Positions 49,186 through 49,681 of a stretch of DNA of 64,000 nt are shown one piece after another (position 1 is the stretch's first letter; every line of letters begins with the position of its first letter). The notes under the pieces were generated by a model. That model was not told the DNA's origin. It did not search any database and saw nothing but the letters and a program-made list of their open reading frames with translations. The position numbers were made by a program, and so were the translations under genes. Origin of the DNA: an uncultured Clostridia bacterium (GTDB taxonomy: Bacteria > Bacillota > Clostridia > Oscillospirales > CAG-272); the NCBI GenBank assembly GCA_944391805.1, contig CALXUY010000014.1:32222-96221 (forward strand), in the 5' to 3' direction.

Positions 49186-49681
49186 GCAAAAAACTGCTTG
49201 GCTTTTGCAGACTGTAGACCAAAGCAACGGCTTTTGTCAGTTTAGCTAAAGTTTTCGCCAATGCGCAAAGCGCATTTCCTTTTCTCAAAATGGCGGCAGG
49301 CGGCAAATAGCCACAAACAACCGCCATGGCGGTTGTACGAATTTTTGCTTTGCAAAAAGTTCCCACGGATCCAACGCCGTGGGGCGTTGTGTCGCAAGGC
49401 ACCATAGGTGCCGGAAATTCTGCTACGCAGAAGTTTCCGCCCGCAGGCGGCGAAATTTCCCCATTTGGCGGCGAACTCGCGCAGCGATTCGCGGATTTGG
49501 AACAAATCCTTTTCTTCTTTGGGCAAATTCTGCGAAGCAGATTTGCAGAGGAGCTACGCGGAGCCTCTGCTTCTTTCTTTGCGCCTACACGCTCAAAGAA
49601 AAAGCGGACGAACGCTTTTGTGCAGTTTTTATTTGATGCGCCTTTTGTCTACAACCTGCAAAAAGCCTGCTTGGCCTTTGC
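49186..49681 (+). repeat. Repeat family copy 2: long form (left module, about 315-bp hairpin array, right module) bracketed by an imperfect duplicated hairpin
   Basis: Left module 49208-49261, right module 49575-49658. Flanks are GCAAAAAACTGCTTGGCTTTTGC (49186-49208) and GCAAAAAGCCTGCTTGGCCTTTGC (49658-49681). No coding-like ORF. Confidence 0.8.

Follow-up and report, generated by a model that had tools for sequence, protein, structure and literature searches.

What kind of sequence occupies the interval between the divergent HAD phosphatase and plsC genes in this genome of an uncultured human-gut Clostridia bacterium? Positions 49186-49681 of the window (the whole 64-kb stretch of DNA analysed here) hold a repeat with conserved ends and a middle filled with short stem-loops, which the initial annotation likened to pneumococcal BOX elements or stacked REP/BIME units. 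The repeat probably belongs to the miniature transposons (MITEs): a non-autonomous element of the IS1182 type, which targets and duplicates hairpins and would be moved by an IS1182-family transposase encoded elsewhere. As such it is a new MITE family within a known type of element, the hairpin-duplicating IS1182 insertion sequences (ISs), and does not constitute a new class of repeat. Only the hairpin-array interior and the nesting of copies within copies go beyond what is known.

Anatomy of the element

Three copies of the repeat family are present in the window (Table 1). The left 27-mer CAGACTGTAGACCAAAGCAACGGCTTT recurs exactly at 47292, 49208, and 57065 (window count 3, expected 0), and the right 21-mer only at 49638 and 57341 (window count 2, none expected by chance). 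The core of copy 2 is 154 bp longer than copy 3, in agreement with the earlier estimate of about 150 bp of additional sequence in the middle, and copies of the repeat range from 294 to 471 bp overall. The module boundaries proposed previously hold to within a nucleotide. The left module, given as 49208-49261, is 89-92% conserved among the three copies when it is closed at 49260, and the right module, given as 76/84 identical to 57278-57361, corresponds to the 85-nt alignment listed in Table 1.

The imperfect inverted repeats described at the ends are real: CAGACTGTAGACCAAAGC and CAGGTTGTAGACAAAAGG match at 14 of 18 positions. Both termini of copy 2 follow the pattern CAGACTGTAGAC..AAAG, with the left end reading CAGACTGTAGAC(C)AAAG. 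The two ends are CAGACTGTAGACCAAAG (left) and CAGGTTGTAGACAAAAG (right), and a variant end, CAGGCTGTAGACC, occurs in metagenome contig L104. Just inside the left terminus lies a partial copy of it in inverted orientation, such that GACCAAAGC (49217-49225) pairs with GCTTTTGTC (49230-49238). The right module contains the hairpin AAAAGCG-GACGAA-CGCTTTT.

No open reading frame across the element matches Pfam or NCBIfam and no transposase remnant is detected among them, which bears out the original impression that the repeat is non-coding. Rfam recognizes no family in the element at gathering thresholds; at E <= 1 only RNAI is reported, a chance match that scores 21 bits where the gathering threshold is 47. 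The flanking genes are indeed a HAD hydrolase and an acyltransferase (the plsC of the initial annotation) on opposite strands, and the promoter-like sites of both fall outside copy 2. The identical insertion (100% over 451 nt) is present in a second sample, contig L008.

Table 1. Features of the repeat family and its surroundings (positions of the window unless a contig is named)
Feature	Position	Strand	Remarks
Copy 1, solo left module	47292-47344	+	Without right end and without second hairpin copy
HAD hydrolase gene	48185-49009	-	Flanks copy 2
Copy 2, left copy of duplicated target hairpin	49187-49207		CAAAAAACTGCTTGGCTTTTG
Copy 2, core	49208-49658, 451 bp	+	
Copy 2, left module	49208-49260, 53 nt	+	92% and 89% identity to the other two copies
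Copy 2, left terminal inverted repeat	49208-49225	+	CAGACTGTAGACCAAAGC
Copy 2, internal array	49261-49573	+	About 11-12 short GC-rich hairpins with A/T-rich linkers of the GGAAAT/ATTTCC type; non-coding
Copy 2, right module	49574-49658, 85 nt	+	77/85 identical to 57277-57361
Copy 2, right terminal inverted repeat	49641-49658	+	CCTTTTGTCTACAACCTG
Copy 2, right copy of duplicated target hairpin	49659-49680		CAAAAAGCCTGCTTGGCCTTTG
Acyltransferase gene (plsC)	49828-50700	+	Flanks copy 2
Copy 3, left duplicated hairpin	57021-57064		37-39-nt palindromic, terminator-like, downstream of lysA
Copy 3, short form of the element	57065-57361, 297 bp	+	
Copy 3, right duplicated hairpin	57362-57407		Fold -22.1 kcal/mol
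Copies nested in or abutting copies	L102 554-730; L103 380-607; L117 1-216	Both orientations	Metagenome contigs

The termini match the ends of IS1182-family elements

A tblastn survey of plasmids identified IS1182-family ISs in Enterococcus faecium (pELF_AA94) and Bacillus cereus (pBCXO1), and their ends, together with those of ISCbo5, provide the closest parallel to the repeat. The terminal bases of the left end are identical to the E. faecium IS at 12 of 12 positions (CAGACTGTAGAC, present at both IS ends), and the right end of copy 2 is identical at 15 of 18 positions to the right end of the same IS (GCTTTTGTCTACAGTCTG). The E. faecium IS itself terminates in CAGACTGTAGACAAAG and CAGACTGTAGACAAAAG and is flanked by a perfect 25-bp hairpin duplication. 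ISCbo5, located on plasmid p3BKT015925 (transposase at L107 35837-37201, 472 bits on NF033551), ends in CAGGCTGTTGA and CAGATTGTTCA, and the direct repeat that flanks it is perfect over 30 bp and contains a hairpin. The pBCXO1 IS terminates in CAGGCTGTGGAG and CAGAGTGTTGGG, with a hairpin duplication of 32 bp around it. The octamer CAGRYTGT is common to the termini of our element, ISCbo5, and the pBCXO1 IS, and the wider motif CAGRYTGT(A/T)GA...AAAG is shared with the ISCbo5/ISBma2-like elements of Clostridium botulinum group III and C. novyi and with the two plasmid ISs.

The likeness extends to the layout. ISCbo5 and the E. faecium and pBCXO1 ISs all have their left end at the 3' foot of the target hairpin, as does our element, and in all four the end is followed by a partial inverted copy that creates an end hairpin. 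These hairpin-duplicating ISs also share with the element a long direct repeat containing a hairpin (25-32 bp in the ISs) and a preference for terminators at gene ends. They differ in being autonomous elements of 1.5-1.6 kb that encode a DDE transposase of 450-480 residues (NF033551), whereas the repeat measures 0.3-0.47 kb, retains no transposase remnant and has a variable interior made of a chain of hairpins. Remoter members of the family, ISCfr1 and a Sinorhizobium IS, have related ends of the form ...TGTTGAAAAAGT and no long duplication. Similarity to IS1182 ISs is confined to the approximately 18 terminal bases and the layout; the remaining module sequence matches nothing. The possibility raised at the outset, that the modules might belong to a described IS family, is thus realized for the termini and not for the rest of the modules.

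We also observe that the transposase reading frame of the E. faecium IS ends without an intrinsic stop codon: the first base of the duplicated hairpin supplies what is missing from its TGA (L109 1941-1943), and the C-terminus of this protein thus depends on the insertion site.

Previous studies place these features in context. ISCbo5 was reported to insert at terminator hairpins (PMC3098183), and IS1272 and TnSha1, both of the IS1182 family, recognize stem-loops by their structure (PMC5678879, PMC4923244). The published cruciform model includes one branch, "pathway b," in which the entire stem-loop is duplicated (PMC5678879, PMC4923244). A MITE with IS1182-type ends and 4-bp direct repeats, MITEPye1, has been described in Paracoccus yeei (PMC11578231). 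Like our element, MITEPye1 is small, ORF-less and intergenic, carries 18-bp IS1182-like terminal repeats, and is presumed to be mobilized in trans (PMC11578231). It differs in its 4-bp direct repeats and in its sequence, belongs to another phylum, and has no reported hairpin targeting or internal array.

The termini also bear on the enzymes initially suggested as candidates for moving the repeat, namely IS200/IS605, IS110, and RAYT-like proteins. All three are disfavored by the true terminal inverted repeats, the flanking duplications, and the DDE-type ends of the IS1182 family. Elements derived from IS200/IS605 (PATEs), which have neither terminal inverted repeats nor target duplications and insert next to (3' of) a constant tetra- or pentanucleotide, were considered separately and rejected, given the inverted repeats that match at 14 of 18 positions, the hairpin duplications, and the variable bases preceding the left end.

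Target hairpins are duplicated around the element

Copy 2 is bracketed by hairpins. The left target hairpin, taken together with the first C of the element, forms GCAAAA...TTTTGC, and the right flank folds as a hairpin that begins at the last base of the element. The bracketing repeat (49188-49208 vs 49661-49681) is 86% identical over about 21-22 bp, and the original target at the HAD/plsC site would have been GCAAAAAGCCTGCTTGGCCTTTGC-like. The hairpin-like 23-24-mer that had been noted on both sides of this copy is therefore the duplicated target hairpin, and such a duplication is the signature of the hairpin-duplicating IS1182 subgroup.

Copy 3 presents the same arrangement on a larger scale. 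It is bracketed by two copies of a perfect palindrome of 37-39 nt, and its original target at the lysA site would have been the 37-nt palindrome AACGCCCC...GGGGCGTT; the flanks contain a direct repeat of 39 nt (95% identity) and an inverted-repeat match of 41 nt, giving a duplication of about 39-44 bp. As the hairpin is duplicated, each of the two convergent genes retains a terminator-like hairpin. The flanking sequences differ between copies, which identifies them as duplicated target DNA outside the element proper.

One insertion event is seen in the human-gut metagenome contig L003, where one copy is nested in another directly after the first internal hairpin of the host copy. The inner copy has (C)AACGTGCTGCGCACGTTT(CA) on both sides, a perfect hairpin duplication of 19-20 bp. 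The same hairpin is uninterrupted in copy 3, where it is the first of the internal hairpins (approximately 57117-57135), so that copy 3 represents the empty site for the nested insertion. Additional nested insertions next to internal hairpins, in either orientation, are found in L103 and L117 (Table 1). At one more locus, the hairpin at the left end in L003 matches the hairpin at the right end in L117. With regard to the evidence of mobility sought in the initial annotation, the family is dispersed and probably mobile, with conserved ends and variable modules; one pair of filled and empty sites (L003 and copy 3) is available, and no strain lacking copies 2 or 3 was recovered. Contigs encoding an identical HAD or LysA protein either carry the insertion or break inside it, and no strain-level empty site for these two copies was found among them.

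At every independent insertion site recovered, the left end lies 0-2 nt past a hairpin. A perfect stem of at least 5 bp abuts the left end at all nine sites collected first and at 15/15 once later sites are included, against a null expectation of 7.6-7.8% per site. Folding energies of the 42 nt adjoining each end were compared with random windows, for which the null mean is -5.0 kcal/mol. The median is -10.7 kcal/mol for the left flanks (n = 15, p = 3e-7) and -10.6 kcal/mol for the right flanks (n = 10, p = 1.3e-4). The bases preceding the left end vary from copy to copy.

Adjacency to hairpins is by itself not unique to IS1182. Folded hairpins or terminators are also targeted by IS110/IS1111 elements, integron attC systems, and class C group II introns. 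The repeat could in principle be a hairpin-seeking element of one of these other classes: a substrate for recombination of the IS110/IS1111 or attC-like kind, or a class C intron that has no ORF and homes to sites downstream of terminators. The invariable position of the left end directly 3' of a hairpin would suit such an origin. Those systems, however, are not known to duplicate a whole hairpin or to possess terminal inverted repeats. The element is matched by no RNA model, those for introns included, and its terminal identity is to DDE elements of the IS1182 family. We regard this origin as having scarcely any chance of being correct.

Five complete copies (L102, L104, L115, L118, and probably L116), all in short metagenome contigs of 0.5-1 kb, have unlike hairpins on their two sides and no duplication. 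The same locus can carry different interiors in different samples, as in L102 vs L119 and L005 vs L118. This observation suggests that copies often recombine or undergo gene conversion with one another, or else that the assemblies are chimeric, and makes it plausible that the copies with unlike flanks have the same origins; they may be recombinants between copies or chimeras of k-mer (de Bruijn-graph) assembly. Alternatively, insertion may not require a duplication, by analogy with IS1272, where the hairpin is deleted. IS1272 and TnSha1 of staphylococci resemble our element in using structure-read stem-loop targets of unrelated sequence, often terminators. IS1272 replaces or deletes the stem-loop without duplicating it, whereas the hairpin is duplicated around copy 2, copy 3, and the nested copy in L003. 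According to ISfinder, the direct repeats of IS1182 measure 0-60 bp.

The internal array is a mosaic of unrelated hairpins

The interior of copy 2 was described initially as at least ten different GC-rich stem-loops separated by A/T-rich linkers. All of the hairpins named there are present, and our count is about 11-12 (Table 1). Several of them are terminator-like on the + strand. The entire region 49186-49681 (496 nt) folds far more stably than its shuffled counterparts, with z = -6.8 as DNA and z = -5.95 (+ strand) and -4.8 (- strand) as RNA. TRF finds no tandem array in 49100-49750, and internal resemblance is limited to three loosely paralogous modules, AAATTCTGC-NNN-GCAGA, at 49340, 49415, and 49525.

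An alignment of 12 copies reveals that the interior is a mosaic in which entire hairpin modules are present or absent between copies. The position of the first module is occupied by unrelated hairpins, with the arms ATGCGC/GCGCAT, ACGTGC/GCACGT, GCCTTTT/AAAAGGC, or AAACTTTT/AAAAGTTT. Elsewhere, both arms of a stem change while the loop CGCA stays constant (CCGCC/GGCGG, CCGTC/GACGG, CCCTC/GAGGG, and CCCGT/ACGGG), and a further pair of homologous hairpins reads GGCACC/GGTGCC in one case and GGCGGT/ACCGCC in the other. RNAalifold records nine pairs with compensatory double changes. Among stem mismatches on the + strand, C-A is about as frequent as G-T, as judged by eye on a small sample.

These properties are relevant to two further explanations. 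The first is the one with which the description of this locus began, a mosaic repeat maintained by the host in the manner of REP/BIME or BOX, spread by RAYT (an IS200/IS605-like HUH enzyme) or by recombination, and serving as terminator, mRNA stabilizer, or protein-binding site. The resemblance is genuine: BOX and REP/BIME are likewise intergenic, ORF-less, and modular with variable numbers of stem-loops, the interior is a chain of short palindromes, several of the hairpins look like terminators, the GGAAAT and ATTTCC linkers alternate in orientation, and the number of modules differs among copies. BOX and BIME units, however, reproduce one or a few consensus sequences, without transposon-type terminal repeats or target duplications of variable sequence. 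Pneumococcal BOX has the organization boxA-(boxB)n-boxC with boxB in tandem, whereas the stems of the present element share no consensus and TRF detects no tandem unit, leaving only the three loose paralogs. The true 18-nt terminal inverted repeats match IS1182-family ends, and the target duplications differ from copy to copy, while HUH elements make none. The analogy with BOX or stacked REP/BIME units is therefore abandoned, and we judge a host-maintained repeat of this kind to be very improbable.

The second explanation, that the repeat is a multicopy structured non-coding RNA gene or a cis-regulatory RNA with hairpins selected as RNA helices, draws on the very strong fold z-scores and the nine compensated base pairs. 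Selection on an RNA would be difficult to reconcile with helices that are present or absent as a whole and with unrelated hairpins at the same position. The fold is no less significant for DNA than for RNA, Rfam offers no match, and the balance of C-A and G-T mismatches on the + strand gives, for a small sample, no sign of a strand-specific constraint or wobble signal. The copies also occur in unrelated contexts, have inverted-repeat termini and flanking duplications, and nest in both orientations. We see only a very slight chance that an RNA accounts for the family. The internal hairpins are therefore read as DNA-level structures, and they demonstrably serve as targets for sibling copies.

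A separate idea, that the interior hairpins are captured target hairpins, found no support: 9-mers common to the interiors and the sampled flanking hairpins are at about the chance level (approximately 19 expected) in this small sample.

Copy 1 and neighboring features

Copy 1 lies directly 3' of the hairpin GAGGGTGGCAG-AAAAAT-CTGCCACCCTC (47265-47292), which follows a sufBD-like gene and occurs there once, unduplicated. The 11 nt just upstream of this hairpin (TCTACAGTCTG) are the reverse complement of the element's left terminus, and lengthen the hairpin to CTACAGTCTGAGGGTGGCAG-AAAAAT-CTGCCACCCTCAGACTGTAG (window 47254-47301). This arrangement may be left over from a second element, or may stem from palindrome-templated correction or from a one-ended event. 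Near copy 2, positions 49166-49179, beyond the left hairpin, match 49218-49231 at 13 of 14 positions and correspond to part of the left terminus (ACCAAAGC[C/A]ACGGC), which recalls the tandem left-side duplication reported for IS1272L. The copies at 47292, 49208, and 57065 are all on the + strand and the cumulative GC skew rises throughout the window; a replication-strand bias is possible, with three copies as the sample.

Several other features were encountered in the window. A tRNA gene (47534-47606, - strand) is situated just downstream of copy 1. The AT-rich interval between the tRNA and HAD genes contains a 34-nt inverted repeat (76%) at 47789-47822 and 47955-47988, with the core TCACTTACGAAA / TTTCGTAAGTGA, which could represent paired operator-like sites or another small element. 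A lysine riboswitch (51685-51855, 75 bits) precedes the dapA-dapB-lysA operon. Finally, a long coding-region repeat at 19924-20700, with 12/24-nt periodicity, 35 overlapping 300-nt copies, and an AT skew of 0.66, presumably encodes a low-complexity repeat protein.

Search for the parent insertion sequence

The initial annotation proposed looking for a trans-acting transposase. This was the right kind of enzyme to seek, and none was found in the window or in the loci of relatives: tblastn with two IS1182 transposases retrieved nothing from the 64 kb or from loci of relatives totalling 1.2 Mb. The E. faecium transposase, used as a database query, returned more than 7,900 family members, and the named organisms among the best 120 are all Bacilli. 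As the parent reading frame might extend into the right end, as it does in the E. faecium IS, peptides from three reading frames of the right module were used as queries; they recovered no transposase, only spurious ORFs of further copies. Two of these ORFs (P0132 and P0137) sit on contigs of 18 kb and 22 kb.

Searches for further copies were bounded by the available sequences. The best DapA relative of this human-gut bacterium is a Eubacteriales metagenome-assembled genome at 79% identity. The 80 loci taken from the closest relatives with available sequence, none of which exceeds 79% DapA identity, contained no copy by either blastn or a scan for the end motifs. The left 20-mer has no match in a genome collection from which the host species is absent. 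Three scans of viral collections gave either no matches or 64 single chance matches, with no transposase nearby.

Proposed mechanism

We propose that a DDE transposase from an IS1182-family IS elsewhere would bind both terminal inverted repeats, with the consensus CAGRYTGTAGAC-AAAG. Recognition of the target would depend on its shape and not its sequence, the palindrome being extruded as a stem-loop or cruciform, and the enzyme would join the two 3' ends of the element at the feet of the extruded structure. Gap repair would then copy the entire hairpin and leave the element bracketed by two hairpin copies, such that the duplication (19-20, about 22, and 39-44 bp) should be a few bases longer than the hairpin. 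That the duplication, at approximately 19-44 bp, tracks hairpin length is expected if the feet of a cruciform lie side by side; a fixed active site acting on B-form DNA could hardly produce it.

The genomic distribution of the copies would follow from the same mechanism. Terminators are the commonest strong hairpins, and copies accordingly sit just after genes or between promoters. Because both neighbors keep a hairpin, insertion is likely to be nearly harmless or neutral. As the interior of the element is itself a chain of hairpins, sibling copies land within it, giving nested insertions, and modules would be gained and lost as entire hairpins.

One may speculate further that the interior consists of self-renewing target sites. 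The element would then carry its own landing pads, which channel sibling insertions into existing copies and spare the host. The array would turn over by the gain of whole hairpins, possibly derived from duplicated targets or from footprints of insertion and excision, and the two arms of each stem would be kept in step by palindrome-templated correction, with no selection on RNA involved. We consider this proposal rather unlikely as it stands. If true, it would describe a MITE whose cargo is a target structure.

Implications

The assignment of a previously unclassified repeat of uncultured human-gut Clostridia to structure-directed DDE transposition of the IS1182 family provides natural evidence for the stem-loop-duplicating branch, with duplications of approximately 19-44 bp set by the hairpin. 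Hitherto this branch was represented chiefly by an entry in IS catalogues and by one of the alternatives in a published model. There are also practical and genomic consequences. The elements break short-read assemblies, with many contigs ending inside copies, and they duplicate terminators and create substrates for recombination. The combination of a hairpin-array interior and self-nesting is unusual for a MITE, and makes the family usable for studying how a transposase reads the shape of DNA.
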